Of a DNA stretch of 40,370 nt, positions 7,142-37,363 are shown piece by piece. Both the position numbers and the translations under genes were made by a program. Numbering within the stretch: the stretch's first letter is position 1; each line of letters begins with the position of its first letter. This DNA comes from a virus, in IMG/VR virus record IMGVR_UViG_3300019458_000016, positions 1 through 40,370 of that record, one strand, 5' to 3'. A model generated the notes under the pieces. It was not told the origin of the DNA. It did no database searches and was given only the letters and a program-made list of their open reading frames with translations.

Positions 7142-7729
7142 ATGTCCAAAAAATTGTCAGATTTTGAAGAAAGTTTATTTGAACCAGAATCTATTGAATT
7201 AAAAGGAGTTATAATAAACGCTGGTGAAGTGAAAACTGGTTATATAAGCCCTTTAAAAAGACGGGGTAGACCAAAGGGTTCCAAGAATAAAGTAAAAGAT
7301 AGTGCCGGAGTAGCTCCAAAGGCAGAGCAGTTGCCTTGTAAGCAAACGGTTGAAGGTTCAAATCCTTCCTCCGGCTCCATTGATTCTAAGATAGAAAAAA
7401 TAGAAAAATCATTAGACTTATTAACTCAAATTGTTTCTGGATTAGTTGATACTAAAAAGAAAGAACAAGATGATGCTGCCAAACTTTTACTAGAGACTGC
7501 CAAATCTGTTCAAGATAAGATTGAAAATACAAATGAACCTAAAATAAATGTTAATGTTGATCCTGAAATTACTATAAATGGTGTACGATATTATGGTTTG
7601 GTTAATGTGCCAATTAGTTTAGCAAATAGATTAAAAGATATGATGAAATCTAGATCAGATATGAGAGCAATGGAACCTGTATTTGTTGATCATAGAACAG
7701 GACAACCATTAGCTATATTGAAAGGATAA
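7142..7729 (+). CDS. Hypothetical protein (195 aa) with an AT-hook-like KRRGRPKGSKNK; the ORF contains a complete tRNA gene
   Basis: SD AGAGGA lies 5 nt before the ATG. No alternative start codon exists downstream of the tRNA for the protein-like C-terminal half. Whether the whole ORF is translated is uncertain. Confidence 0.5.
   Translation: MSKKLSDFEESLFEPESIELKGVIINAGEVKTGYISPLKRRGRPKGSKNKVKDSAGVAPKAEQLPCKQTVEGSNPSSGSIDSKIEKIEKSLDLLTQIVSGLVDTKKKEQDDAAKLLLETAKSVQDKIENTNEPKINVNVDPEITINGVRYYGLVNVPISLANRLKDMMKSRSDMRAMEPVFVDHRTGQPLAILKG
7304..7379 (+). tRNA. tRNA-Thr (anticodon UGU) with encoded CCA
   Basis: Manual cloverleaf fold. Acceptor stem is 7/7 bp (GCCGGAG/CTCCGGC). D stem GCTC/GAGC has a GG-containing loop. 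Anticodon stem is 4 bp plus a G-A mismatch, with loop CTTGTAA. Variable loop is 5 nt. T arm is GAAGG-TTCAAAT-CCTTC. Discriminator T is followed by CCA. The only oddity is C at position 14. Confidence 0.85.
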
Positions 7730-20771: not shown

Positions 20772-20957
20772 TTATGAATGTTTCTTATTAGTTTTCCTAG
20801 TCCTTTTCCGCTCATATGTAGTCCTCACTCTTTTTACACCTAAATCATAAAATATATCAGAAGAAACTAACCATAATATGTTGTTTAAAGCAATCTTAGT
20901 CCCAAAAAGATGTTGATGTTCTTCAAACATTTTAACTACATGATTATTTAACTTCAT
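20772..20957 (-). CDS. Hypothetical protein (61 aa)
   Basis: ORF overlapping the upstream gene by 14 nt, with a basic C-terminus. Confidence 0.55.
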   Translation of the reverse strand: MKLNNHVVKMFEEHQHLFGTKIALNNILWLVSSDIFYDLGVKRVRTTYERKRTRKTNKKHS

Positions 20958-21321
20958 ATCTCTCCTTCTTTTTCATATAAAGGTCTAATAATTCTGCTGC
21001 CTTTCCTTTTAATGGTCTATCATCAATTAAATTATTAGTCGTTATAGCATCAATTAATACTCCTAAACAGGCTTTGGCATGAGCTAAATGTGGTTTCCCA
21101 CTATCAGATGCAACATCTTCACCATCTTGCCAGGCTAAAATATGTCTCAATAAAGCTGCTATATATATAGAACCAATTACTTTATTAGCTCTCCAATTAT
21201 AAGGCCCATATTTCTTTGCCCCCTCTTCAAAAGCTATAGCTTCATAAATGATAGAAGAAGGAGGGACTAAATTAAGTTGTACTTTTTTAATTCCTAATAA
21301 ATCTTTAGGGTTAGTAGACAT
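20944..21321 (-). CDS. dATP/dGTP diphosphohydrolase-like protein (DUF5664-type)
   Basis: NPKDLLGIKKVQLNLVPPSSIIYEAIAFEEGAKKYGPYNWR...LLRHILAWQDGEDVASDSGKPHLAHAKACLGVL matches my recollection of the family pattern (K..l.LiPp...l..Ga.KYg..NW...RH..aw..GEd.d..sG..HLaHa). Confidence 0.7.
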   Translation of the reverse strand: MSTNPKDLLGIKKVQLNLVPPSSIIYEAIAFEEGAKKYGPYNWRANKVIGSIYIAALLRHILAWQDGEDVASDSGKPHLAHAKACLGVLIDAITTNNLIDDRPLKGKAAELLDLYMKKKERYEVK

Positions 21322-21836: not shown

Positions 21837-22027
21837 ATTTCCTTCCAATAATATCTCGATTCTATATCTGTCATACGGAAAATATAATCTTCCGCTTCCT
21901 TTCTTGAATTAAACGATAACATTGAATAAGTATATCCGCCTTTACACCATATCCAAAAGAAACAAAATCTTTGCTTTACAGCATACTCTTGTAAATATTC
22001 GTTGTAAAAAATCTTGTATTTATTCAT
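21833..22027 (-). CDS. Hypothetical protein (64 aa)
   Basis: ORF with a 4-nt overlap with the upstream gene. Confidence 0.65.
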   Translation of the reverse strand: MNKYKIFYNEYLQEYAVKQRFCFFWIWCKGGYTYSMLSFNSRKEAEDYIFRMTDIESRYYWKEI

Positions 22028-22431
22028 AAAGAAGCATCCTTTAAATCATATGTTTTATATTTAGTTTCTAATGTATTAAAACATTGTTCCCAAGTTTCAA
22101 ATACTTGATCAGCCAAATGGTGAAATATATGTTTCGGTTTCCCTACAACCCAAACTAATTTATAATGGAAATGTCCTAACGCTAAGCCTAGTTCTACTGA
22201 TTTTCCAGTGGATATATTTTCAGAATCCATAATAAATAGATCAGCAGATAATACTTCGGCCCTATCTTTTTCTGCTAGTTTTCGCTTCCATTCATATTCT
22301 GACAAAAAATCAGATTTTATTGTTTCATCTAACCAAGTAGAAACGACATTATGTCCTAATGACCATAGTTTGTCTCTAACTGGCCTCATTTTAACTCTAT
22401 TTGTAAAACTAGCACTAAGATATATTTTCAT
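22024..22431 (-). CDS. Nucleoside 2-deoxyribosyltransferase-like protein
   Basis: MKIYLSASFTNR...STGKSVELGLALGH..KLVWVVG fits the Nuc_deoxyrib_tr pattern (kiYlAG...G...E.G.A). The ATG at 22431 has SD AGAGGA. The ORF is open back to 22449. Confidence 0.7.
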   Translation of the reverse strand: MKIYLSASFTNRVKMRPVRDKLWSLGHNVVSTWLDETIKSDFLSEYEWKRKLAEKDRAEVLSADLFIMDSENISTGKSVELGLALGHFHYKLVWVVGKPKHIFHHLADQVFETWEQCFNTLETKYKTYDLKDASL

Positions 22432-22441
22432 TCTATATCCT

Positions 22442-22651
22442 CTATTCAAACGTTACTTTAAATCTCTTGCCATTTATATATTTGTAATATAGTCTTTTAA
22501 CAGCTTTATTTAAATCATCGAAATCAGTAAACTCATCTAAAGTTTCCCCATCACGTTCAAATCTTCCAGACCCATCACTGTAAATAACAATATTAACAAA
22601 ACTATCTCCCAATTTATTTTCAAGTAATTCTAAAAATTTTGTTATCTTCAT
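22442..22651 (-). CDS. Hypothetical protein (69 aa)
   Basis: ORF with a 4-nt overlap with the MazG-like gene. Confidence 0.7.
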   Translation of the reverse strand: MKITKFLELLENKLGDSFVNIVIYSDGSGRFERDGETLDEFTDFDDLNKAVKRLYYKYINGKRFKVTFE

Positions 22652-22983
22652 TTTCCATACCTTTTTTGTAATTTAACAATATTTGCTTCTGCAATTTCAT
22701 TTAATTTTAATCCACATTCAGTAGCTAATTGAGATAAGTACCAAAGTACATCTCCTAATTCATATTTAAGTTTTTCACGATCTACAGGGGAATCCGATCT
22801 TACTGCTTTTTTAATTAATTCTACTACTTCACCAGTTTCGCCAGCTAAGCCCAATACAGGATAAATATATGAACAACGGCCCTTGTCTCCAAATCCAAAA
22901 AAATCTTCATTATAAAAACTACTGTATAGACTAGGATATTGTGCAGTTTTTTTTGATTTTTTTTGATATTGCTCAAAATTCAT
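22648..22983 (-). CDS. MazG-like nucleotide pyrophosphohydrolase
   Basis: LAGETGEVVELIKK ... KYELGDVLWYLSQLATECGLKLNEIAEANIVKLQKRY gives the EXXE...EXXD all-alpha NTP-PPase signature. SD GGAG upstream. Confidence 0.8.
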   Translation of the reverse strand: MNFEQYQKKSKKTAQYPSLYSSFYNEDFFGFGDKGRCSYIYPVLGLAGETGEVVELIKKAVRSDSPVDREKLKYELGDVLWYLSQLATECGLKLNEIAEANIVKLQKRYGK

Positions 22984-23676: not shown

Positions 23677-24072
23677 TTACTCATTGTACACAAATCCTGA
23701 CATTTTCAGTCTAGTCCTCAATATCTTTTCCATTTCAGGAAAAGGTTTTAAAAATTCTACTAATTTACTAAATTCTTTTCCAGTAAGGTTGCCTTTAAAT
23801 AAGTTACAATCAAGATCAATTATATCCAAATTATCTAATTCATTTGTCCCATTTCTGCTTAATGCGATATTATGATCAATAGAAAATGATCCAACTGTAA
23901 TGGGTTTCTTACAATATTTACATCTATTACAGATAGAATCTATAATTTTATTTTTTAGTTGTTCCTTCCACTCTTTAGTTACTTCTAGTTTCTTTTTCTT
24001 TCTGTTACATAAATTCCATATAGCCTTACTGATTCTGACATTTAACGTCTGCTGTTTTTTCTGTTTTCTCAT
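23677..24072 (-). CDS. HNH endonuclease
   Basis: CNRCKYCKK ... FSIDHNIALSRNGTNELDNLDIIDLDCNLFKG gives Cys pairs plus the H-N-N/H core. Confidence 0.8.
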   Translation of the reverse strand: MRKQKKQQTLNVRISKAIWNLCNRKKKKLEVTKEWKEQLKNKIIDSICNRCKYCKKPITVGSFSIDHNIALSRNGTNELDNLDIIDLDCNLFKGNLTGKEFSKLVEFLKPFPEMEKILRTRLKMSGFVYNE

Positions 24073-24820
24073 TTGTCGGCCACACCAAACTTTGTATGTT
24101 GTTATCTATTGTTTGTTGATCGCCAAAGCACCATAAATTACTAAACGTACAACCTTTACAAAAATGCTTATATTCAGCTGAATCTATAGCATATGGTTCC
24201 GGCAACAGTCTATTATCAAAACTTTCTTTTACTGAATCCCACCAATCTGTAACTTCTTGTACTAATTCAGGAGTAACATCTATCCAAAAAGACCTTCTTC
24301 CTTTATAATCCAAATCCTTTGCGATATATAATATCTTTACCTTGTCAATAGGATACTTGTTATTGATAATGAAGTATGTTATTTCCTGGTAAATATTGTG
24401 CTTGTGTGGCCTCTTTTCTTTTACGATATATCGCCAGAATGATCCAGGGTTGATAGATTTAATACTATAAAGAACATTTAATCCATTATCGTCTCTGACT
24501 ATTACATCTATTGCGCCATGAATAAAATCATGACCACTTAAAAAAGTTTCACAAGCTACTACTTTGCCTGATCCTTTTACAAGATTTTCAATAGCTTCAT
24601 GTATAATCTGTCCTAACCAGAATATCCATTTCTGATTTTCAGTATGTTCTTCTTCCTCAGCATTTAATCTATTTAGAATAGTAGCTCTTTTACAGTATCC
24701 GGCATTACTAGCACTAAACTTGGTTTTTGTTTTTCTTTTATTACGTCTTGCCTGATATGCTTTATCTATCTCTACATCTATTAACCATTCGAGAAGATCA
24801 TATTTTTTAATTTCAGCCAT
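24026..24820 (-). CDS. Cas4-like PD-(D/E)XK nuclease with a Cys cluster
   Basis: Motifs seen are FSASNAGYCKRA (N-terminal Cys), GQIIHEAIE, GAIDVIV...LYSIKS, QEITY and the C-terminal CKGCTFSNLWC. The residue in the (D/E)xK slot reads Ser. Confidence 0.7.
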   Translation of the reverse strand: MAEIKKYDLLEWLIDVEIDKAYQARRNKRKTKTKFSASNAGYCKRATILNRLNAEEEEHTENQKWIFWLGQIIHEAIENLVKGSGKVVACETFLSGHDFIHGAIDVIVRDDNGLNVLYSIKSINPGSFWRYIVKEKRPHKHNIYQEITYFIINNKYPIDKVKILYIAKDLDYKGRRSFWIDVTPELVQEVTDWWDSVKESFDNRLLPEPYAIDSAEYKHFCKGCTFSNLWCFGDQQTIDNNIQSLVWPTNEKTEKTADVKCQNQ

Positions 24821-25794: not shown

Positions 25795-25823
25795 TATATA
25801 TCATATCTGACTTTAAAAGTCAA
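25795..25823 (-). promoter_or_regulatory. Sigma70-type promoter P3 (TTGACT-17-TATATA, extended -10 TGa)
   Basis: The minus strand reads CTTGACTTTTAAAGTCAGATATGATATATA, nearly identical to P2. The -35 overlaps the polymerase stop codon. Confidence 0.6.
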
Positions 25824-27466
25824 GTGTCAATTTTTGTCAGAGAATACAAATTATTGCCAATTTTATGCTCTGCATTGTATTTGACCTTTAATTCTATGTC
25901 AAAATAATTATGGAAATATAAATCAAAATCATTATACACTGTTTTTACTATATCTATAACTTCTTTTTCCTCTTTTGGACAAACATCTACCGTTATGTCA
26001 TCATGTACGTCAAGACAAACATGGCTTTCAAAACCCTCTAAATGGTGGGCAAGTGTAATTGTCATGATCTTATTAAAGTCATGGCCTATGCCCTGAATGG
26101 GGGCATTTAACCCCTCATTGTAGTTTGATGTATGCCGACCTCTATGAGTGTATGGATGTTCAACATAACCTTTTTGACTAATCTCTTTTCCTCTCATTTC
26201 AAAAAATTCTGACATTTCTGGATATCGTACAACTATAAGATCGTGGACAAATTCTGTTGCTTGAGGCCAAGTGAAACCATACTCATTGACAAGACTATAG
26301 CCCCTACCACCAAATATAGTGCTAAAATTAGCGTTCTTAGCCCTAGTCCTATCAGGCAAGAATTTAAATCGTTGTAAGGTTTCATCATGTATATCATATC
26401 CATTCACTAAATCATCAGCCAATTTATGTTTACCTGTAAATATCCAAAACATTTCTGCTGCCAATAATGCTTCTAATCTTGACCAGTCGCTAGAAAGAAG
26501 TTTACCACCTGGAAACTTGCTTACTATACATTTTTTAAATTCACTGGTTTCTGGTCTGGGCATAACTTGTATAAACTTTTCACTTAATCTACCTGTAACT
26601 GTACCAGTTGTGGAATAATTTGGATAATAAATATCCTCTATCAATTCATTCTTAAACCCAATATTATATGTCCCTAACTGTTTATTCGCTTGTCTTAACT
26701 CTAGTAATAAATTAGCAACGGGATGATCTAAAATTTTAAGAGTATTTTTATTAATACAATCATTTCCTTTATCGGTTTTTGGTAACTTTACTTTTTCTCT
26801 TTTAAAAAAATCCCTTAAATCATTAGTTCCTATCAATGCCTTAGATTCAAAATCTACTTTCAAACCATAGTTTCTTAAGGCTTCCGCTGCCTTATTTCTT
26901 TTAACTTCCCAAATAGCTCCTTGTCTATTTAGTTCAATTATATCTACTTTTACCCCTTTCATTTCCATAGTAGTTAAAGCCTTGATATAGTCCATAAGCA
27001 TCATAAAAAGAGGCCATTTGTTCTTTTTTCTTAAAACTGGTTCTGTTAAATCTTTTAGCTGTTTAGTAAAGTAAAGATCATGGCGATTATATAGTTTAAG
27101 CAACTGAATATCGCCCACATAATCGCTGTTACTGAAATCAACCAAATACTTGTAATTAGGATATTGGTATAAGACATGAGCAAGGTTCTCCAAAGAATAA
27201 CTATTTAAATCCTCTCTCAATAAATGAAAAGCTATTTTAGTGTCATAAAGTTGTTTAGGCCATTCATCCCAAGTAGGAAATTGTTGAAATAAGCATTTAA
27301 GATCAAATTTTAAATTAAATCCGATTAAATTATCATAACTTTTTAAAGTCGGATATTCTAAATCTTGTGATAAACATTCATCACCTAAAAAACCATTAAA
27401 CAATACTCTAAAATCAGGATGTTTATGACGTAATCCTATCGTTTCTGCATCAAATGTAATATCCAT
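25820..27466 (-). CDS. Family A DNA polymerase with 3'-5' exonuclease domain
   Basis: Exo I FDAETIGL, Exo II NLKFDLKCL, Exo III YNRHDLYF. Pol motif A LLSSDWSRLEALLAA, motif B RTRAKNANFSTIFGG, motif C LDVHDDITV. Confidence 0.92.
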   Translation of the reverse strand: MDITFDAETIGLRHKHPDFRVLFNGFLGDECLSQDLEYPTLKSYDNLIGFNLKFDLKCLFQQFPTWDEWPKQLYDTKIAFHLLREDLNSYSLENLAHVLYQYPNYKYLVDFSNSDYVGDIQLLKLYNRHDLYFTKQLKDLTEPVLRKKNKWPLFMMLMDYIKALTTMEMKGVKVDIIELNRQGAIWEVKRNKAAEALRNYGLKVDFESKALIGTNDLRDFFKREKVKLPKTDKGNDCINKNTLKILDHPVANLLLELRQANKQLGTYNIGFKNELIEDIYYPNYSTTGTVTGRLSEKFIQVMPRPETSEFKKCIVSKFPGGKLLSSDWSRLEALLAAEMFWIFTGKHKLADDLVNGYDIHDETLQRFKFLPDRTRAKNANFSTIFGGRGYSLVNEYGFTWPQATEFVHDLIVVRYPEMSEFFEMRGKEISQKGYVEHPYTHRGRHTSNYNEGLNAPIQGIGHDFNKIMTITLAHHLEGFESHVCLDVHDDITVDVCPKEEKEVIDIVKTVYNDFDLYFHNYFDIELKVKYNAEHKIGNNLYSLTKIDT

Positions 27467-27471
27467 ATATT

Positions 27472-28983
27472 TTATCCAATAAAATTACCTTTATCCCATT
27501 CAACTTTAAGGCAATTAAAATAATCTTTCACATACCGCTTATGTTTTATACCTGTTATCCAGATATCTGTTTTGTTTTTATCTTGCACCATTCCGATAAT
27601 AGTATCTGCTATTGCTCCTTTATACATCTTAGCTTCTGATATCATATCATCTCTAAGTCTGTAACACCAGGGTTCTTTACTGTAATCTATATAAGAAATT
27701 AGAATATGGTCTAATACAAGAATATGACAGTTATTATTTCTTGCTATGTTTGCCAATGTCATTACGGTATCTCTAACTTCAAATCTGGATTCCCCTAATC
27801 CTCTTTGACTAGGTATTCTGAAAAAATAATCTATAATCACCAAACCTGGATTTATTTCTTTTATTTGTCTTTCAATCTCGTTCAGTGTTACAGGTTGTTT
27901 AGTAGCATCTAAAAAAAATATATCCGCATCATATTCTTGAGCAATAAATTTAGCATCATATTTATTTTTAATACTACCTAGCATATCTTCATAAAACACA
28001 TGAAGAACATTAAATCCTTTCTTTCTAGCATTACTTCCTATAAAACATGCTAGGTGGGTTTTACCTGTACCCTGTTTAGCTATAAGAAAAGAAGTCTCTC
28101 CAACACCTAACCCACCGTCCAAATAAGAATCCAGGCCATGTATTCCTGTGGGAATGGTTTCCACTTTTGGAAAAGACTGGTCTTTTAAACTACTGTATCT
28201 ATAAATTTGTGTGGGAATAGGACTGGCTTCCATTAATCTATCAGAATTATTTAAAGCATTTTCGCTGTCTGCCGAAACGGTATTATATACAGAAACCGAA
28301 TTAAAAGAAGGGGAATACTTTGATATGCTTTCTGCTATTGTTCTAACTTCACTTTCTGGTAATGGTGGGATACATCTTTCCATATTTGTTTCATATAAGG
28401 CCGTAAAAATGGCATTAAAACTTAACCCTTTTCTTCGCATACTGCCAGCAAGTGAAGTAAGATAATTATTTCTACCACCTTGTAAGATAGGTGTAGTAAA
28501 TTCTCTAAACCCTACAGATATTCGTGGTTCATTTAATTTTTCTTTCAATTCTTTTGGAAATTCTGCCAATTCACATTCCCAAGGAGCTATAGTCCATTGA
28601 TAGGGTTTACCTGTATCAGGATGTATGCTTGGCGGGATTACAACATACCCGTTATCGCTTCTAAGGTCTACTTTTTCCGCAATCTTTCCGACACTGTTTC
28701 TAATTCCCTCTTGATATTTAAAATAGTAATGAAACCCTCTTCCTGTAATAGCACAAGGAGTTAGGTAAAAAGCAACTTTGGAAAGTATCTCAGTATCTAC
28801 TTTATCAATGTCTACAACTATAATTCCTGATACTTTACCAGTTTGAACACCTATATTTCCTTCTTTTTCAATATTAAAAACATCTTTATTTTGCCATTCC
28901 TTGTTTATTGGTATTTTTCCATTTAAATTCAATAACTTCCATCTTAATTTTTGGTATTTCTCAATCAAAAAAGACTTATCCAT
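27472..28983 (-). CDS. Bifunctional prim-pol primase / PriCT / DnaB-RecA-like helicase
   Basis: IIVVDIDKVD, GRGFHYYF and DLRSDNGYVVIPPSIHPDTGKPYQW give the prim-pol part. GGRNNYLTSLAGSMRRKG is PriCT-like. Walker A AKQGTGKTH and Walker B LVIIDYF give the helicase part. Confidence 0.88.
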   Translation of the reverse strand: MDKSFLIEKYQKLRWKLLNLNGKIPINKEWQNKDVFNIEKEGNIGVQTGKVSGIIVVDIDKVDTEILSKVAFYLTPCAITGRGFHYYFKYQEGIRNSVGKIAEKVDLRSDNGYVVIPPSIHPDTGKPYQWTIAPWECELAEFPKELKEKLNEPRISVGFREFTTPILQGGRNNYLTSLAGSMRRKGLSFNAIFTALYETNMERCIPPLPESEVRTIAESISKYSPSFNSVSVYNTVSADSENALNNSDRLMEASPIPTQIYRYSSLKDQSFPKVETIPTGIHGLDSYLDGGLGVGETSFLIAKQGTGKTHLACFIGSNARKKGFNVLHVFYEDMLGSIKNKYDAKFIAQEYDADIFFLDATKQPVTLNEIERQIKEINPGLVIIDYFFRIPSQRGLGESRFEVRDTVMTLANIARNNNCHILVLDHILISYIDYSKEPWCYRLRDDMISEAKMYKGAIADTIIGMVQDKNKTDIWITGIKHKRYVKDYFNCLKVEWDKGNFIG

Positions 28984-29036
28984 AAGTTTAATCGTTAATC
29001 TTTTTAAAGTATTATAGTTTGTATGTAATAATTATA

Positions 29037-29243
29037 CTATACTACACTGCCTCTTTTTGATATATAATATGTCTCATCATCAAGAGTGTGGTTTCCTTTA
29101 TCTGAAAGGTAAAGAGGTAGATTAAAATATAGTCTAGATCTTAATTTTGCTTCTAAAACATCAACCCCTCTTTTCTTTAACAGCTTTTTAACCGTATCAT
29201 GTCCTGTCTTTCTTTTCCATTGGTTTTTATCGTCAATTAACAT
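29037..29243 (-). CDS. Hypothetical protein (68 aa)
   Basis: First ORF downstream of promoter P4. SD GGGGAGGG upstream. Confidence 0.65.
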   Translation of the reverse strand: MLIDDKNQWKRKTGHDTVKKLLKKRGVDVLEAKLRSRLYFNLPLYLSDKGNHTLDDETYYISKRGSVV

Positions 29244-29267
29244 CTATACCCTCCCCATACAATCTAA

Positions 29268-29296
29268 TATATACCAGTTTTAATTATTAAAGTCAA
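29268..29296 (-). promoter_or_regulatory. Sigma70-type promoter P4 (TTGACT-17-TATATA, extended -10 TGg)
   Basis: The minus strand reads CTTGACTTTAATAATTAAAACTGGTATATATTAGA, matching P1 in both hexamers and in TGGTATATATTA. Confidence 0.6.
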
Positions 29297-29530
29297 GAGA
29301 AAAAGATTAGTAAAAATGGATAATATTTTACCACTCCATTGAAAATTTTTCTCTTTACCAATAAAAAGAATCTATCTATTAAATATAATTCTAATAATAT
29401 AATACAAAATAATATTATTATTAGTATAGTATTTATATATAGATAGTTATTTATATATGTAATTATCTTTTTCATATATTATATTTATATATATAGTATA
29501 TATATTATATATACAATAATATATATAGAA

Positions 29531-29567
29531 TACTATATAGAGTATATATAATAGTATATATAGAGGG
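29531..29567 (-). repeat. Two CYCTATATA(T/G) motif copies inside an AT-rich island (29476..29568)
   Basis: The minus strand reads CCCTCTATATATACTA (29567..29552) and ACTCTATATAGTA (29543..29531). The same motif occurs at 34122, 34162 and 34451 on the plus strand. Confidence 0.5.
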
Positions 29568-29568
29568 T

Positions 29569-29817
29569 TTATATATCTATTTCTTCAGGTTCCTCTGTTA
29601 TACCATATTTTCTAACTATAAGCATATAGATAGAAGGCATTATCCCTATTCTATAAAATTCTTTCTCTCTTTCGCTTGTATAATAACCAAATTTATTTGG
29701 ATCATGTATTCTGTACCCACAAATAATACACCTGATATCTAGTGTCCATCCTTGATTAGAGAAATGCTTTAACGGCCCTTCTAAACTATTTTTAGCCTTA
29801 CATTTAGGACATTCCAT
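29569..29817 (-). CDS. Zn-ribbon protein (82 aa)
   Basis: ATG at 29817 lies 8 nt after GGAGG. MECPKCK...CIICG. The ORF is open back to a GTG at 29850 that has no SD. Confidence 0.65.
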   Translation of the reverse strand: MECPKCKAKNSLEGPLKHFSNQGWTLDIRCIICGYRIHDPNKFGYYTSEREKEFYRIGIMPSIYMLIVRKYGITEEPEEIDI

Positions 29818-29852
29818 TAATTTAGCCTCCATTTCTATTAAAATTGCCACAT

Positions 29853-29872
29853 AAAGGCCTCTAGCTGCCTTT
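29853..29872 (-). terminator. Hairpin after the amidoligase cassette, sharing the core CTAGCTGCCT with the 18390 hairpin
   Basis: AAAGGC-ctctagct-GCCTTT. Read on the minus strand, both sites share AAAGG..CC..TAGCTGCCT.T.AGG. Confidence 0.4.
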
Positions 29873-29940
29873 AGGGCGCTATTAATATAATAAGTAATAG
29901 TTTACCATTACTTTAATATTATAATCGTTTGTAAGGCAAT

Positions 29941-30102
29941 TTAATCCATTTCCTTTTCTATTGAAGGTTCTTGTGGTGGTGAAAGTAATACCCATTTTGT
30001 GTTACCACAGTATAAGTCAGGTGTACGCCAAATTCTTCCATATTGATCTAAGGCGAATAAATCCTCACTTGTTGCTGTTATTTGTTCAAATCGAATACTC
30101 AT
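29941..30102 (-). CDS. Small hypothetical protein (53 aa), below the ORF-track cutoff
   Basis: My own translation is MSIRFEQITATSEDLFALDQYGRIWRTPDLYCGNTKWVLLSPPQEPSIEKEMD. Its start overlaps the upstream stop (TAATG). Confidence 0.55.
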   Translation of the reverse strand: MSIRFEQITATSEDLFALDQYGRIWRTPDLYCGNTKWVLLSPPQEPSIEKEMD

Positions 30103-30467
30103 TATAAATATCTCCCTTCATTGTTAACAGTGTAAAACATTGATAGTTGATTTAAGGCCGATTTTAAATATAATAGAGTAGCTTCTAGCCCGTGTTTAAA
30201 TCCGTCATAAGAATCATTTCCATCTCTTACAATTTCAAATACCCAAACTGGTTCAGTTATATCTTTCCAATAGCCAATAGCATCATAGACAGTAAATCCA
30301 TCCGATAATCTGGATATTTCTTTTATTATACTTTCTAGGTTAGTATCATACAAAGAAGTATAATAAAATTCTTTACAATCGTCATTCCATCTTTTTTTCT
30401 TTCCAAATTTTTCTATATGTTCTTTTGTAGGTGTATATGTTTTTGGGATATATATTTTATATATCAT
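30102..30467 (-). CDS. Hypothetical protein (121 aa)
   Basis: ORF with an ATGA overlap with the upstream gene. No recognisable domain. Confidence 0.75.
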   Translation of the reverse strand: MIYKIYIPKTYTPTKEHIEKFGKKKRWNDDCKEFYYTSLYDTNLESIIKEISRLSDGFTVYDAIGYWKDITEPVWVFEIVRDGNDSYDGFKHGLEATLLYLKSALNQLSMFYTVNNEGRYL

Positions 30468-30652
30468 CCTGTACCATCCTTTCTTAATCCTGTCTGTGTT
30501 TCTGTTATTGTGCTAATCAATGATTTTAGAGATGTAAACAGATACACCAAGTCTCTTTCTACTAATTCATCTAACTCAGGCTGACTTAATGCGTTGCTTA
30601 CCACTTCTAAGGCTTCTTTAAGTTTCCTTTTATCGTGATGTGTAAATGACAT
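30464..30652 (-). CDS. Small helical protein (62 aa) ending in ...RKDGTG
   Basis: SD GGAGGG lies 6 nt before the ATG. Predicted all-helical. It sits directly downstream of the amidotransferase gene. Confidence 0.7.
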   Translation of the reverse strand: MSFTHHDKRKLKEALEVVSNALSQPELDELVERDLVYLFTSLKSLISTITETQTGLRKDGTG

Positions 30653-30670
30653 TTTGTTCCCTCCATGTTT

Positions 30671-31423
30671 TTAATTAAATGAATCTAACCATTCGCCACA
30701 AAACTGACAAACATAGTTATTTTGATCTGCTGATTTTTCATCATAATATCTTGAGCAAGTTGAACAGATCATGTCAAAACTATGTTCTTCCTTATCTTCT
30801 TTATCTGCATACCACCCTTTAAGATATTTAGTATAATCCCACTTATCCTCTTTATAAGTGTTATTAGAATAGAATGAACCGGCCACCTTTTCAAATCCTC
30901 CGTACATAAATATTTTGCCTTCTCTATTCATCAAAGCGAATTTAGAATGAGATTCTTTTGCTACTAAATCTAAAATGCTTCCAGCAGAATTGTGTATTTC
31001 TAGTTTAAATGGATCAATGACATGGCTTAATATATCCCTTACAAAAACCTGTGAATCGGACATATGGGTTGTTTTATCTTCCATTAAAAGTATACCATTG
31101 TGGGCGAATGACCATGTGGTATGAGTATAAATTGAATCTAATTCAGCTTTACTGTTTATGATAGGAAAAGGATGTGTCTGTTCCTTATTCACAAACCCGC
31201 TAGTGGCAATTCTAAAGTGTATCACTAGTGGTAGATTTTCTGCCTCTTTAAGATCATCATAGAAAGGGACTAAAGATTCATACCCTTTACTTATAACTAC
31301 TTTACCACTATCTTTATCAGGGAAACAGAATCCCGCTCCATGTGGATTATTATTCCAGCAAGTCTCTAATGTTTTAAAATCAGGTAGTTTAACATCTTCT
31401 GGTTTAGCTATTATTATACACAT
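30671..31423 (-). CDS. Class-II (Ntn) glutamine amidotransferase-like protein with a C-terminal Zn ribbon
   Basis: N-terminal MC (catalytic Cys2) in MCIIIAKPE, plus NPHGAGF, HFRIATSG..N.EQTHPF and AHNGIL. The C-terminus is CSTCS...CQFCG. SD GGAGGGGG. Confidence 0.8.
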   Translation of the reverse strand: MCIIIAKPEDVKLPDFKTLETCWNNNPHGAGFCFPDKDSGKVVISKGYESLVPFYDDLKEAENLPLVIHFRIATSGFVNKEQTHPFPIINSKAELDSIYTHTTWSFAHNGILLMEDKTTHMSDSQVFVRDILSHVIDPFKLEIHNSAGSILDLVAKESHSKFALMNREGKIFMYGGFEKVAGSFYSNNTYKEDKWDYTKYLKGWYADKEDKEEHSFDMICSTCSRYYDEKSADQNNYVCQFCGEWLDSFN

Positions 31424-32427
31424 ACATTTTCCCCCTCCGTTTTGTCTATTTGTTTTTTGGATATACCAAGGACCCTTACTAAATAATTCTCTAAATATTG
31501 TGTCTTGCCTGAGATAAACTCTATATACTTTAAATATACATTTTCTTCTAGTGATTGAATGACACTAATGGTATCTACAAACTTTACTAAAAGATAAATA
31601 TATTCTAAAGTAGCAAACAAAGTATTTTTGTTTAGTGTTCCTCTAAATGTTCTAAATTCTATTGTACTTTCATTTGTAAGATTTACAGCTTCATATCTAT
31701 CTGTAGTATTCAGATATTGGCCTACTTTAATACCCTGTTTCTTTTTACCTATAGCTCTACAATAACTATTTCTAGTTCGCCTTGACAATGCTTCTACAAA
31801 TTCTATATTATTTTCAGTAAAAAATTTAATTTTACTAGTTTGTAAGGCTGTTAGCTCTTTTTTACCAACATGGACGTGCAAACCACAGGTTTCAGTATCA
31901 TGAGACTTATAAAGTTTTTCTTTTAGAAATTTTAAAATCAAATCCCAGTATCCGCTTGTAAGATGATATTGTAAAGTAGCCGGATGAGATACTATCTCAA
32001 TACCATCTTCTAAAGATCCATCATCCTTACAATATATAAATGGGTTTGCAATATCTAAAATATGTTTAGCCGCATCTTTCCGAGATGTGTTTCCTGTATT
32101 TTCAACCTCTAACTCAATTCCCATAAAAATATCGTTAGTTTTTCCATTTTTACCATAAAATTTAAATCTTTCAGGTTTATATTCATAAAGGTGAATGTAA
32201 CAACTACAGCAACCCGCACAATTAGAACATTTATAACAATCTATTTCATATTCATTACAATTTCCGCAGTAATCTATTGGTGAAGTCGATTGCTCTTCAA
32301 AGCAAGCATTACAATAATCTTCTGAAAAAGGTGTTATACGAAAAGCACAATCCCTACAGTATAGATTAATATCACATCTCATACATCGTACTATACTTCC
32401 AGCGGGGTGATAACATAAATCAGGCAT
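31414..32427 (-). CDS. Amidoligase (Amidoligase_2-like carboxylate-amine ligase) with an N-terminal Cys-rich multi-CxxC region
   Basis: GIELEV, EDGIEIVSHP and CGLHVHVG resemble the putative-amidoligase family motifs. The first ~80 aa carry 15 Cys, mostly as CxxC pairs. 10-nt overlap with the amidotransferase gene. Confidence 0.75.
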   Translation of the reverse strand: MPDLCYHPAGSIVRCMRCDINLYCRDCAFRITPFSEDYCNACFEEQSTSPIDYCGNCNEYEIDCYKCSNCAGCCSCYIHLYEYKPERFKFYGKNGKTNDIFMGIELEVENTGNTSRKDAAKHILDIANPFIYCKDDGSLEDGIEIVSHPATLQYHLTSGYWDLILKFLKEKLYKSHDTETCGLHVHVGKKELTALQTSKIKFFTENNIEFVEALSRRTRNSYCRAIGKKKQGIKVGQYLNTTDRYEAVNLTNESTIEFRTFRGTLNKNTLFATLEYIYLLVKFVDTISVIQSLEENVYLKYIEFISGKTQYLENYLVRVLGISKKQIDKTEGENVCV

Positions 32428-32463
32428 GATTTTTTCTCCTATTTATTAGGATTTAGTATAACA

Positions 32464-32658
32464 CTATTCTGTTACTTTGTCAATCATTTTGAGTAAGTCA
32501 GAATCTTCAAAGTCAAGTAGTTGGTAGTGATATTTTAATCTAAATTTATATAATGCTTCCTCTTTACTACAGGCATAAATATATTTAGCCCAGTCTGGAA
32601 AAAGATAGTCTCCGGCTATAAATAAACAGTATTGATGTATTTTGTGAACAGGGTACAT
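32464..32658 (-). CDS. Hypothetical protein (64 aa)
   Basis: SD AAGGAG upstream of the ATG. Confidence 0.7.
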   Translation of the reverse strand: MYPVHKIHQYCLFIAGDYLFPDWAKYIYACSKEEALYKFRLKYHYQLLDFEDSDLLKMIDKVTE

Positions 32659-32661
32659 AGT

Positions 32662-32805
32662 TTACTTCTCCTTGTTTTTGTTAGGCTTAAACCTATCAAA
32701 CTCAGTATGATCTAATGATCTGTCTTTAGAGATACGTTTAAGAGTATCTAAAGGCTTCTTGTTAGCTTCTTTGACTACTTTTCTTATCATGCGTTTGTAA
32801 GTCAT
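32662..32805 (-). CDS. Small lysine-rich protein (47 aa), below the ORF-track cutoff
   Basis: My own translation is MTYKRMIRKVVKEANKKPLDTLKRISKDRSLDHTEFDRFKPNKNKEK. ATGA overlap with the upstream stop. It fills the gap. Confidence 0.45.
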   Translation of the reverse strand: MTYKRMIRKVVKEANKKPLDTLKRISKDRSLDHTEFDRFKPNKNKEK

Positions 32806-33164
32806 TTTGTCATTCCCCACAGTGAAATAAATGGTTCTGTTGGATTGTTTTTGATTAGCTGGTGCATTTTATCTAACCTGTTCTGGTATTCCACCAATTT
32901 GGCTAAGTTACTACTAATTAAATTGTCAGTAGATGTTTCTACCATACAAACACTATTAACCTTTGTCTCAGTGGGTAACACAACTGTACTTTGATCCTTA
33001 GTCCTGCCTGTGCGTTTACCAAAGGCTCTACTCTTGCCATTACACTTACCACATAATTTGTAGTCAGTTCTTACTTTATCACCAACCCTATAAACTGGGT
33101 TATGACATCTTACACAGTCAAATATTTTATTTTTGGTTCTCATGTTTATATACCATTCTTTCAT
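32802..33164 (-). CDS. Zn-ribbon protein (120 aa; alternative start at 33143)
   Basis: CVRC...CGKC form two CxxC pairs, followed by a helical C-terminus. It is an early-arm gene and a possible regulator. Confidence 0.65.
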   Translation of the reverse strand: MKEWYINMRTKNKIFDCVRCHNPVYRVGDKVRTDYKLCGKCNGKSRAFGKRTGRTKDQSTVVLPTETKVNSVCMVETSTDNLISSNLAKLVEYQNRLDKMHQLIKNNPTEPFISLWGMTK

Positions 33165-33282: not shown

Positions 33283-33672
33283 GGTTATTTCTCCTTTATT
33301 TTAGTGTATTGGTTTGCATATTGTAGAGATATAGAAGCATAAAACGTGCCATACATATTCCAAATCCCATCCTATTGATATTATTAGCATCACTTACATA
33401 CTTTACATATATACCTATGTACAATATAGTACAAAACTATGTACTTGTTTACACATATTGGTATAAATAGCTTGACATAGTTAGTCCGGGCAAGGTACAC
33501 ATATATGTTTCAAATATGAAACAACCTATATATAACTTGATATAAGCCAATGGATATGTGTAGGATAGAGATAGAGTGGGTAAATGTTTACCATTAATGG
33601 ATATATATTTACATATATGTAAGGATATGTGAGGGAGCAGAAGGTTATGTAAAATTTGTGGGGGAGTGGGAG

Positions 33673-33723
33673 TTATCAACAGGTTATCAACATGTTAATA
33701 TCTTGTGGATAAACTGTGGATAA
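33673..33723. promoter_or_regulatory. Cluster of four DnaA boxes (putative origin or DnaA-controlled region)
   Basis: TTATCAACA at 33673 and 33684 (8/9 match). TGTGGATAA at 33704 and 33715 is the exact reverse complement of TTATCCACA. Each pair is spaced 11 bp, and the two pairs face each other. Confidence 0.7.
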
Positions 33724-33886
33724 GTATATATGTGTACAGAATTGCCCATTCCCATAGGTGGCCTGTCCCCATTTGCATAAGGGAAGGTAACTGGGGACTG
33801 AGTAAATTTAAAACTTTTGCATGGAGGGTAAAATGAGGCAATAACCTGTAAAGATTTGCATAGATAAAATTATTTTTACCAAGGGC

Positions 33887-33915
33887 TTGACTTTTAGGAA
33901 AGAATATGGTATATA
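33887..33915 (+). promoter_or_regulatory. Sigma70-type promoter P1 (TTGACT-17-TATATA, extended -10 TGg)
   Basis: CTTGACTTTTAGGAAAGAATATGGTATATATTAAG. Confidence 0.65.
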
Positions 33916-33998
33916 TTAAGATGTAAGGAGGGTATGGGTAAATAAGACCTGAATTACCCCCTACTTTGAAAGATTATATATCATTTCTTACAAAGTAC

Positions 33999-34027
33999 TT
34001 GACTTTTAAGAATAGATATGATATAAT
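33999..34027 (+). promoter_or_regulatory. Sigma70-type promoter P2 (TTGACT-17-TATAAT, extended -10 TGa)
   Basis: CTTGACTTTTAAGAATAGATATGATATAATAAG gives a consensus -10, a 5/6 match at -35 and the optimal 17-bp spacer. Confidence 0.75.
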
Positions 34028-34082
34028 AAGATTATAGGAATAGATATAGTAAAACAGCCAATTATTGATTTAGACTAGTATG

Positions 34083-34203
34083 TATATATATTAATATATA
34101 CTAGTATATAATACATATTAACCCCCTATATATTAATATATACTAATATATGATATAATAACCTCCTATATATAAATATATATACTATTAAATATAATAA
34201 TAT
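34083..34203 (+). repeat. About three tandem ~40-bp AT-rich repeats (..CCYCCTATATAT(T/A)AATATATA..CTA..)
   Basis: The units start near 34083, 34122 and 34162. A further CCCCCTATATAGTATATATT lies at 34451..34470, just upstream of the first rightward gene. Confidence 0.7.
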
Positions 34204-34513
34204 ATAATAATACATATGTCTATATATAAAAACATATATTATAAATTACTAAATATATATAATAACATATATAATAAATTTATATATAATATATATATTT
34301 TAAATAATAAATTAAATAATTCTAATATATTCTTAAAACTTATATACTTGATAGTATTTATTATAGTTTTCTATCCAGTAATTGGTTTATTGATTATTAT
34401 TAAGTTTTTAATATATTCTAGATAGTATACTAGGGCTTCTAATATAAAAGCCCCCTATATAGTATATATTCTTTTTATTGGCTAAAGTATTTTTATTGGT
34501 GGGGTTAGAATAT

Positions 34514-36748: not shown

Positions 36749-37363
36749 ATGTCCGATGTAGATATTGTTTCTGGAACAGGTAGTGAAGGCCAGCCTGGCT
36801 CGCCAGGCCCGTCTGGACAAGATGGAGATGATGGACAACCAGGCCCTCCAGGACAACAAGGACCAACTGGTTCTGTTGGAGCAACAGGAGAAACAGGACT
36901 TCAAGGGCCTCCTGGAATGTCAGGGGAAGATGGTATAGAAGGCATTTCTGGACCACCAGGACTTCCAGGATTACAAGGGATACAAGGATTTCCTGGAATT
37001 TATGGGCAAGCTGGTGATGACGGAATAGATGGTTTTCCTGGCCCTCCTGGGCCAATAGGTCCTCAAGGAGTATCTGGAAGTGGAAATGAAGGCACTGCTA
37101 TATTAGATTTTGGTTCTTCTCCTTCGGAAGAAGCAACTGTTACAGTAACAGGCCAAACTTCAATTCTTTCAACTTCTCGTGTTAGAGCTTATTTTATGGG
37201 TTCTACAACAATAGATAGTAATGAAATAGATCATTTACAAGCAGCACAATTTATTAGAGTAGTATGTGGAATTCCTACCGCCGGTTCTGGTTTTACTATT
37301 TATGCAGTTTGTGATAGTTTTCAAACAAAAGGATTATACAATATTATGTGGTCATGGAGTTAA
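36749..37363 (+). CDS. Collagen-like repeat protein (fibre component)
   Basis: About 30 uninterrupted Gly-X-Y triplets (GQPGSPGPSGQDGDDGQPGPPGQQGPTG...GPPGPIGPQG), followed by a ~95-aa globular C-terminus. Confidence 0.85.
   Translation: MSDVDIVSGTGSEGQPGSPGPSGQDGDDGQPGPPGQQGPTGSVGATGETGLQGPPGMSGEDGIEGISGPPGLPGLQGIQGFPGIYGQAGDDGIDGFPGPPGPIGPQGVSGSGNEGTAILDFGSSPSEEATVTVTGQTSILSTSRVRAYFMGSTTIDSNEIDHLQAAQFIRVVCGIPTAGSGFTIYAVCDSFQTKGLYNIMWSWS

Follow-up and report, generated by a model that had tools for sequence, protein, structure and literature searches.

A conserved two-gene module of a predicted amidoligase and a class-II glutamine amidotransferase-like protein in phages and mobile elements

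The IMG/VR viral record IMGVR_UViG_3300019458_000016, analysed over its full length of 40,370 nucleotides (nt) and referred to below as the window, is a stretch of ~40 kb with a guanine-plus-cytosine (GC) content of 33% that essentially represents one complete phage contig. Its genes include those for a large terminase, a portal of the SU10 type and an internal virion protein, from which the phage is judged to be podovirus-like. No close relative was found among the deposited phages. Near the head of a leftward operon, five consecutive open reading frames (ORFs) were confirmed on the minus strand, at 31414-32427 (337 amino acids, aa), 30671-31423 (250 aa), 30464-30652 (62 aa, p62), 30102-30467 (121 aa, p121) and 29941-30102 (53 aa, p53), the first two coding for a predicted amidoligase and a class-II glutamine amidotransferase-like protein (GAT-II). 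The operon runs on from these genes into those for a primase-helicase, PolA, a Cas4-like exonuclease, an HNH protein, an endolysin, MazG and a MazZ-like protein. A preliminary description of this DNA had read the five ORFs as one cassette for ligation, tagging or modification. That description is accurate as to the ORFs and how they join, the motifs and 15 N-terminal cysteines of the ligase, and the paired CxxC motifs of the GAT-II protein, but the conserved unit is the amidoligase gene followed by the GAT-II gene, that is, two genes rather than five.

The predicted enzymes and their zinc modules

The 337-aa protein is predicted to be an ATP-dependent carboxylate-amine ligase of the Amidoligase_2 family, with a modelled fold like that of glutamine synthetase (GS)/GCS2, YbdK and PafA. 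The family assignment, previously made from motifs (GIELEV, EDGIEIVSHP and CGLHVHVG, all present), was borne out by a profile search, in which the protein scored 38.3 bits against Pfam Amidoligase_2 (PF12224), above the gathering threshold (GA) of 22. It also matches phrog_16683 (4.2e-49) and the 'amidoligase enzyme' PHROGs 2443 and 7469. The catalytic domain of the AlphaFold2 (AF2) model has a predicted local distance difference test (pLDDT) score above 90, and Foldseek comparison of this domain with the PDB returned YbdK (1r8g) as the best match (E = 1.7e-4), followed by GS, Dop and PafA; these matches have a probability of 1.0 at template modelling (TM) scores of just 0.34-0.40. Escherichia coli YbdK, the best solved match, is a minimal GS-like ligase that shares 14% identity (TM ~0.38) with the window protein but has neither a zinc module nor a GAT-II partner. 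Residues E105 and E107 (ExE), D136, E144, H184, H186, R217, E257, R259 and R262 are invariant in an alignment of 36 sequences and may contribute the metal and ATP sites. Homologues number 682, at 30-44% identity, with the closest relatives in gut and rumen Clostridia. Dozens of proteins labelled 'amidoligase enzyme' are among the best viral matches, in sources as varied as Pseudomonas phage tf, crAss-like viruses and giant viruses; identity to cultured-phage proteins does not exceed 38%, and Marvin gp105 and MEP401/402 are direct tblastn matches.

The GAT-II gene overlaps the amidoligase gene by 10 nt (ATG at 31423; amidoligase stop at 31414-31416), the junction being preceded by GGAGGGGG. Its 250-aa product is predicted from profile, model and active-site signature to be a class-II, N-terminal nucleophile (Ntn) glutamine amidotransferase-like amidohydrolase, in agreement with the earlier assignment, with the catalytic domain at residues 1 to ~197 (30833-31423). 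Alone, the protein scores 20.6 bits against GATase_4, its best Pfam family, which is below the GA of 23; a family profile built from 26 sequences reaches PurF at 4.7e-9 and also matches GlmS, and PF13230 is carried by 14 of 62 GAT-II relatives among the matches listed. The AF2 model (pLDDT 84.6) is matched by Foldseek to the GlmS glutaminase (1.7e-6), EgtC (7e-5) and also PurF, pointing to an Ntn alpha-beta-beta-alpha fold. M1-C2, R71, N109-G110 and D123 are invariant, and an exact MC start is found in 110 of 128 relatives. Together with the conserved T74, residues R71, N109-G110 and D123 align with R-x-x-T, HNG and SDT of PurF, the counterparts of the glutamine-site residues in the Bacillus subtilis enzyme being HVRYAT, AHNG and SDTE. 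By this alignment M1-C2 would supply the nucleophile, N109-G110 the oxyanion hole, and R71 and D123 the grip on the glutamyl alpha-carboxylate and alpha-amino group. The N-terminal Cys nucleophile, the Arg/Asn-Gly/Asp site and the fold are thus shared with PurF, GlmS and AsnB. In those enzymes, however, the glutaminase is fused to a synthase (a phosphoribosyltransferase, isomerase or ATP-PPase), whereas the GAT-II of the window is a separate protein with a zinc-ribbon tail and a GS-fold partner. No GAT-II-ligase fusion occurs among the ~180 homologues listed.

Both proteins carry putative zinc modules. Residues 5-76 of the amidoligase (32200-32415) make up an acidic Cys-rich module, zinc-ribbon/LIM-like by its Cys positions, in which the 15 cysteines form six CxxC motifs within 72 residues at a net charge of -6. 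In a sister phage (locus L166) the amidoligase keeps 15 of 15 cysteines, and 12 of the 17 substitutions fall within residues 1-80. The Cys-rich N-terminus had been thought to stand out. It is, on the contrary, a family trait, as at least two CxxC motifs precede the catalytic GxELE in ~80% of 152 amidoligase relatives; numbers of 6, 8 or 10 are the most frequent and would correspond to three to five zinc ribbons. The module of the window is a compressed version. In 91% of relatives the module is acidic, the median charge per residue being -0.16; database labels for these modules are LIM, DZR or 'FmdE', the LIM-like matches of the window module being weak. The GAT-II protein ends in a CxxC-x15-CxxC zinc ribbon (C220, C223, C239 and C242; 30695-30766) with weak matches to Zn_Ribbon_TF and Zn_ribbon_10. 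Such a tail is present in 34% of GAT-II relatives and is almost confined to partners of ligases with zinc modules (41 versus 1; Fisher p = 0.0014, phylogeny ignored). Because of this co-occurrence, the ribbons of both proteins appear to serve one common purpose. The zinc modules had been taken to suggest a macromolecular target, either protein or nucleic acid. Their acidity argues against direct nucleic-acid binding and for protein-protein contacts or nucleic-acid mimicry, so that a protein target is favoured and a nucleic-acid target disfavoured.

Conservation and genomic settings of the pair

A scan of viral contigs with the single ligase sequence gave nothing and alignment-based scans were needed. 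These recovered at least 557 amidoligase loci and 466 GAT-II loci from IMG/VR and at least 581 amidoligase loci from one-genome-per-species bacterial contigs. Neighbourhoods were analysed in 240 related loci, with viral sets of 80 amidoligase-centred and 80 GAT-II-centred loci. The amidoligase is present in 79 of the 80 GAT-II-centred viral loci, which upholds the statement in the preliminary description that amidoligases and glutamine amidotransferase-like enzymes are conserved neighbours. Conversely, GAT-II was found by hidden Markov model in 53 of the 80 amidoligase-centred viral loci and by BLAST clustering in ten more (63/80), nearly always as the next gene downstream on the same strand; the other amidoligase-centred loci are mostly truncated. 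In bacterial genomes the arrangement holds in at least 55 of 76 loci, and the remainder are mostly ORF-start artefacts. No other gene family consistently adjoins the pair in the 240 loci, and no gamma-glutamyl cyclotransferase was found by Pfam as a partner in loci that lack GAT-II.

In phages the pair occupies early or replication regions or lies near genome ends, as do gp105-gp106 at the right end of the Marvin genome, and annotated members of the family come from a wide range of phages with Gram-positive, Gram-negative, mycobacterial and marine hosts. In Clostridia (loci L169-L248, for example L195, L209, L215, L173 and L182) the pair lies among genes for a MobA/VirD2 relaxase, NikA, a resolvase, a tyrosine integrase, a D5_N primase, DUF960 and DUF1643, and in gut and rumen Clostridia DUF960 is often directly upstream of it. 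These loci are integrative or mobilisable elements, not prophages, and because the neighbours are mobilisation and integration genes the module is regarded as general mobile-element cargo. Some viral loci (L020, L043, L072 and L078) contain two divergent amidoligase paralogues that flank or precede a single GAT-II gene. A separate amidoligase clade, lacking both zinc ribbons and an adjacent GAT-II gene, is found in a Clostridioides difficile prophage and phage AR1086-1 (L003 and L165) beside RNA-repair-type genes for the nucleotidyltransferase RlaP, the 2'-phosphotransferase KptA/Tpt1 and the ligase RtcB. A link to RNA repair through RtcB, RlaP and KptA was considered and rejected as a general property of the pair, as in this clade zinc modules and GAT-II are both missing, and the conserved neighbours include no RNA-repair gene.

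Earlier sightings of the pair are on record for LUZ24-like phages, phiEco32, Marvin, OM43 phages, Clostridium prophages and a Planctomycetes phage. Iyer and colleagues reportedly predicted in 2009 that such enzymes modify a cell wall, peptide or metabolite. Beyond this, the literature searched offers one further idea, a co-occurrence with thymidine-hypermodification clusters. The literature searched contains no demonstrated function for the pair and nothing linking it to anti-defence, conjugative elements or glutamylation, and neither PADLOC nor NCBIfam gave a match for any of the five genes. The same two families in the same order, annotated but uncharacterised, are found in phiEco32, in LUZ24/tf/UFV-P2-like phages, as gp105-gp106 in Marvin and in the OM43 phages MEP401/402. 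In LUZ24-like phages they are accompanied by a second COOH-NH2 ligase (PF14395) and an ATP-grasp enzyme, and the GATase has 486 aa, whereas the window has two genes only, with a compact 15-Cys ligase module and a minimal 250-aa GAT-II. The window pair is a divergent member of a known and widespread phage and mobile-element module and does not represent a new five-gene system.

Small neighbouring genes and other features of the window

The p62 gene follows the GAT-II gene after an 18-nt gap containing GGAGGG, p62 and p121 are joined by an ATGA overlap, and p121 and p53 by a TAATG overlap. This linkage had been read as a sign of a single system, but of 67 junctions between same-strand genes in the window, 51 are overlaps or gaps of at most 20 nt. 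Close gene coupling is the genome-wide norm here and therefore says little about function. Small coupled ORFs at first seemed overrepresented after GAT-II, but this was rejected as an artefact of nested out-of-frame ORFs, the corrected figures being 25% versus 16% and 12% versus 10%.

Phmmer searches with p62, p121, p53 and the flanking p93, p64 and p120 gave no homologue in the 240 loci, even at E-values of 1 to 10, and this absence of co-occurrence contradicts the five-gene cassette. In an exhaustive HMMER search of 1.84 billion representative proteins p62 matched itself only, so that p62 is an orphan which adjoins the pair without being a conserved part of the module. The suggestion that p62 is a Pup-like tag fares no better. 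Sister phage L166 retains all three small ORFs, and its p62 (76% identical; ratio of nonsynonymous to synonymous substitution, dN/dS, 0.19) ends in DGTR instead of DGTG, so that the terminal residue a tag would require is not conserved, nor is there a terminal Glu, Gln or Gly-Gly. The corresponding dN/dS values are 0.36 for p121 and 0.61 for p53, which is weak and accompanied by a 6-aa indel; p53 is a small lineage-specific ORF outside the module. On the values of 0.19 and 0.36, p62 and p121 are judged to be real genes.

Three relatives of p121 were found, one of them in L166 with the same gene order. The two distant homologues (L168 and L249; 41-43% identity) lie in the order p52-like, p121-like, DUF7417, p64-like, and no amidoligase, GAT-II or p62 occurs on these 1.1-kb contigs, which makes p121 a backbone early gene of the phage group that is independent of the pair. 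In the window, p64, the enzyme pair and p62 separate p52 from p121. A candidate sigma-70-like promoter (32455-32483, minus strand) lies 28 nt upstream of the amidoligase start and combines TTGACA, a 17-nt spacer and TATACT, with TG before the -10 element (11 of 12 matches). The promoter scan overall was not enriched over shuffled sequences, so this near-consensus promoter is a lead only, and possibly the pair's own. Since p121 homologues occur elsewhere without the pair and a promoter precedes the ligase gene, the enzyme pair appears to be an accessory inserted among small early genes that form the backbone. In the window lineage p62 may have arrived together with the pair.

The five-gene unit had been thought to end at a hairpin after p53. 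A 7-bp hairpin does exist there (29852-29873, minus strand), and the 106-nt intergenic RNA that holds it has a folding z of -2.8, but it has no T-tract and was not called by the terminator scan; it is possibly an RNA structure rather than a canonical intrinsic terminator. The listed GTG start of the adjacent 93-aa zinc-ribbon ORF (p93; 29569-29850, minus strand) overlaps the hairpin region. Because GGAGG stands 8 nt upstream of an internal ATG at 29817, this ATG is probably the real start (MECPKCK..., 82 aa). Over 25820-33164, L166 is a mosaic relative to the window, with the primase-helicase, PolA, p68 and p93 99-100% identical and a synonymous divergence that rises to 0.07-0.66 from p53 leftward to p120, which implies a probable recent recombination boundary near 29.9 kb.

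Elsewhere in the window, the replication operon (20944-21321, 22024-22449 and 22648-22983, minus strand) contains genes for a MazZ-like protein, which matches the dATP/dGTP diphosphohydrolase N-terminal domain PF18909 at 89.8 bits, for a protein weakly resembling nucleoside 2-deoxyribosyltransferases and for MazG, a set resembling the nucleotide-pool genes of phages with non-canonical bases. A Z-genome or nucleotide-amination role suggested by the MazZ-like protein and MazG was rejected, as PurZ and DatZ were not found and only 2 of 160 loci have a MazZ-like gene in the vicinity of the pair. The replication module includes a Cas4/PD-(D/E)xK-type exonuclease (24026-24820, minus strand; TIGR00372 2.7e-8, phrog_1706). 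Between the divergent operons, an AT-rich stretch of ~1.1 kb (33300-34450) without convincing genes contains two copies of a 41-nt promoter-like repeat (CTTGACT...TATGxTATA; 33873-33913 and 33985-34025, plus strand) and AT-rich 29-nt repeats at 42-nt spacing (34085-34210), and is a possible control region or origin. On the plus strand, a tRNA-Thr gene (anticodon TGT; Rfam 62 bits; 7304-7379) lies within the structural-gene block, overlapped by a mechanical ORF at 7142-7729, and a collagen-triple-helix-repeat protein is encoded in the rightward late region (36749-37363).

Candidate functions of the pair

The reading favoured here, given a probability of roughly 0.45, is that the pair would form a self-contained ligase/hydrolase module for a gamma-glutamyl or glutamine-type amide, analogous to EgtA/EgtC and docked on a protein by its acidic ribbons. 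The ligase would use ATP to convert a carboxylate to an acyl-phosphate and join it to an amine. By analogy with GS, Gsh/GCS2, PuuA and PafA this carboxylate would most probably be the gamma-carboxyl of glutamate, giving a gamma-glutamyl amide. The Ntn partner would cleave glutamine or gamma-glutamyl-X at a later step, as in EgtA/EgtC or PuuA/PuuD, and the most likely role of the acidic zinc ribbons would be to bring both enzymes to one shared protein target, probably a basic one, or to join them to each other. The module would be an accessory 'moron-like' cargo that aids a mobile element in a new host, with p62, p121 and p53 as neighbours and not components.

Action of the Ntn enzyme on glutamine or gamma-glutamyl-X is suggested because the Arg and Asp residues by which a free alpha-carboxylate and alpha-amino group are held have been retained. 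Gamma-glutamyl chemistry is favoured because GAT-II and the cyclotransferase partners of related ligases would have one reaction in common, the cleavage of a gamma-glutamyl amide. Every characterised member of the ligase fold makes an acyl-phosphate on a glutamate-type carboxylate, and EgtC, a gamma-glutamyl hydrolase, is among the structural matches of GAT-II. Related prophage amidoligases are paired with a gamma-glutamyl cyclotransferase instead of GAT-II, and the Pfam description of PF12224 also mentions Aig2 partners. Like the window pair, EgtA/EgtC and PuuA/PuuD combine a gamma-glutamyl ligase of the GS/GCS2 fold with a later amide hydrolase, and EgtC is a stand-alone class-II Ntn protein. 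Unlike it, they involve intervening enzymes (EgtB, EgtD, PuuB and PuuC) and small-molecule substrates and lack zinc ribbons, and PuuD is a class-I GATase. No third conserved gene that could encode an intervening enzyme was found beside the pair, so that the likeness to EgtA/EgtC is mechanistic only.

Several points weigh against this reading. Making and breaking the same bond with a ligase and a hydrolase would serve no purpose unless such an intermediate step lay between. The glutamate assignment is by analogy of fold, and the cyclotransferase-paired amidoligases belong to another clade (phrog_2443, not phrog_16683). Acidic charge is an indirect pointer to a protein target, and the pLDDT of the N-terminal module is low. 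Strict coupling and matched zinc ribbons would fit an ammonia-channelling complex equally well. As for the accessory insertion, the comparison contigs of L168 and L249 are so short that the pair could still be present in another part of the respective genomes. A recent insertion marked by a GC anomaly was looked for and rejected, the GC content of the pair being equal to that of the genome, and for that reason the insertion is not recent.

An ammonia-channelling complex would make the pair a heteromeric glutamine-dependent amidotransferase, in which GAT-II would hydrolyse free glutamine and hand the ammonia on to the ligase. The ligase would activate a carboxylate of a metabolite, peptide or protein with ATP and convert R-COOH to R-CONH2, with the ribbons holding the subunits or the target. 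This is somewhat unlikely but the strongest of the alternatives. The glutaminase signature is complete, and the best sequence matches of GAT-II, PurF and GlmS, are true amidotransferases. The 10-nt overlap and near-constant adjacency fit strict coupling at least as well as the gamma-glutamyl reading does, and GAT-II is essentially never found without the ligase while the ligase is sometimes alone, as expected of an accessory ammonia donor. The co-occurrence of zinc ribbons on the two proteins and the loci with two ligase paralogues round one GAT-II can also be counted in its favour. Class-II amidotransferases are, however, normally fused to their synthase, which none of the listed homologues is, and the cyclotransferase pairing of related amidoligases would be left unexplained. 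The characterised stand-alone class-II proteins (EgtC, Dug3 and the YafJ type) are gamma-glutamyl hydrolases, which also counts against it.

A bolder reading, which must be considered unlikely, is that the pair is a general establishment or counter-defence weapon of mobile elements, phages and mobilisable islands alike. The acidic, possibly DNA-mimicking ribbons would dock on a basic host protein (nucleoid, ribosomal or defence), which would then be covalently gamma-glutamylated or amidated, with p62 as a lineage-specific adaptor. If true, phages would have a hitherto unseen way of modifying host proteins enzymatically.

Hypermodification of DNA or RNA bases, in which the pair would amidate or aminoacylate a modified base, is improbable. 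Genes for amidoligases and amidotransferases have been associated with 5-HMUDK/aGPT-Pplase clusters (Lee et al. 2021). In the window the pair shares the leftward operon with the primase-helicase and PolA, and the phage encodes MazG, the MazZ-like PF18909 protein and the deoxyribosyltransferase-like protein. Scans of the leftward-operon proteins against Pfam, PHROGs and NCBIfam, in which several ORFs were matchless so that absence is not absolute, nevertheless revealed no 5-hydroxymethyldeoxyuridine (5-hmdU) kinase, aGPT-Pplase, dUMP hydroxymethylase, TET/JBP, DpdA or PurZ, and no such genes are among the conserved neighbours in the 240 loci. The acidic zinc modules are ill-suited to nucleic acid, and the pair is also carried on mobilisable elements without replication or modification genes.

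Similarly low odds attach to modification of the cell envelope, where the enzymes would alter peptidoglycan or another surface peptide and so block superinfection, as predicted for phiEco32-type phages. Peptidoglycan stem peptides are indeed substrates of amide-bond ligases and amidotransferases (MurT/GatD), and later papers credit the proposal to Iyer et al. 2009. Scans of either protein, however, revealed no signal peptide, membrane segment or cell-wall-binding domain. The hosts span Gram-positive, Gram-negative, mycobacterial and marine bacteria with differing wall chemistry, and cytoplasmic zinc ribbons suggest an intracellular macromolecular partner.

Least probable of all is a five-gene peptide-tagging or modification cassette with the Pup-sized p62, p121 or p53 as tags, substrates or adaptors: the genes are contiguous and translationally coupled, the ligase fold is common to PafA and Dop, and p62 is under purifying selection and present in the window lineage only, inside a segment missing elsewhere between the p52/p64-like and p121-like genes, but as a general system the cassette is largely refuted by the lack of homologues of all three small proteins in the pair loci, the orphan status of p62 and its Gly-to-Arg C-terminus in place of the Glu or Gln that PafA requires, the p121 homologues without an adjoining pair, and a coupling that is the norm genome-wide with no enrichment of small coupled ORFs downstream of GAT-II. 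With PafA/Dop/Pup the window pair shares the ligase fold and the idea of ATP-dependent isopeptide ligation onto a macromolecule; it differs in that the partner is an Ntn hydrolase, not a GS-fold paralogue or deamidase, and in having no conserved tag and no proteasome context.

The amidoligase-GAT-II pair is among the commonest phage enzyme modules without a known substrate; it has been annotated since 2009 and was still described as having a 'function to be explored' in papers of 2023. The problem is now narrowed to a two-gene unit with family-wide, acidic and matched ribbons, a predicted free-glutamyl site in the Ntn partner and carriage on integrative and mobilisable elements as well as phages. 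The evidence directs attention to chemistry of the gamma-glutamyl or amide type and to a protein as target, and away from small-protein tags and DNA modification.

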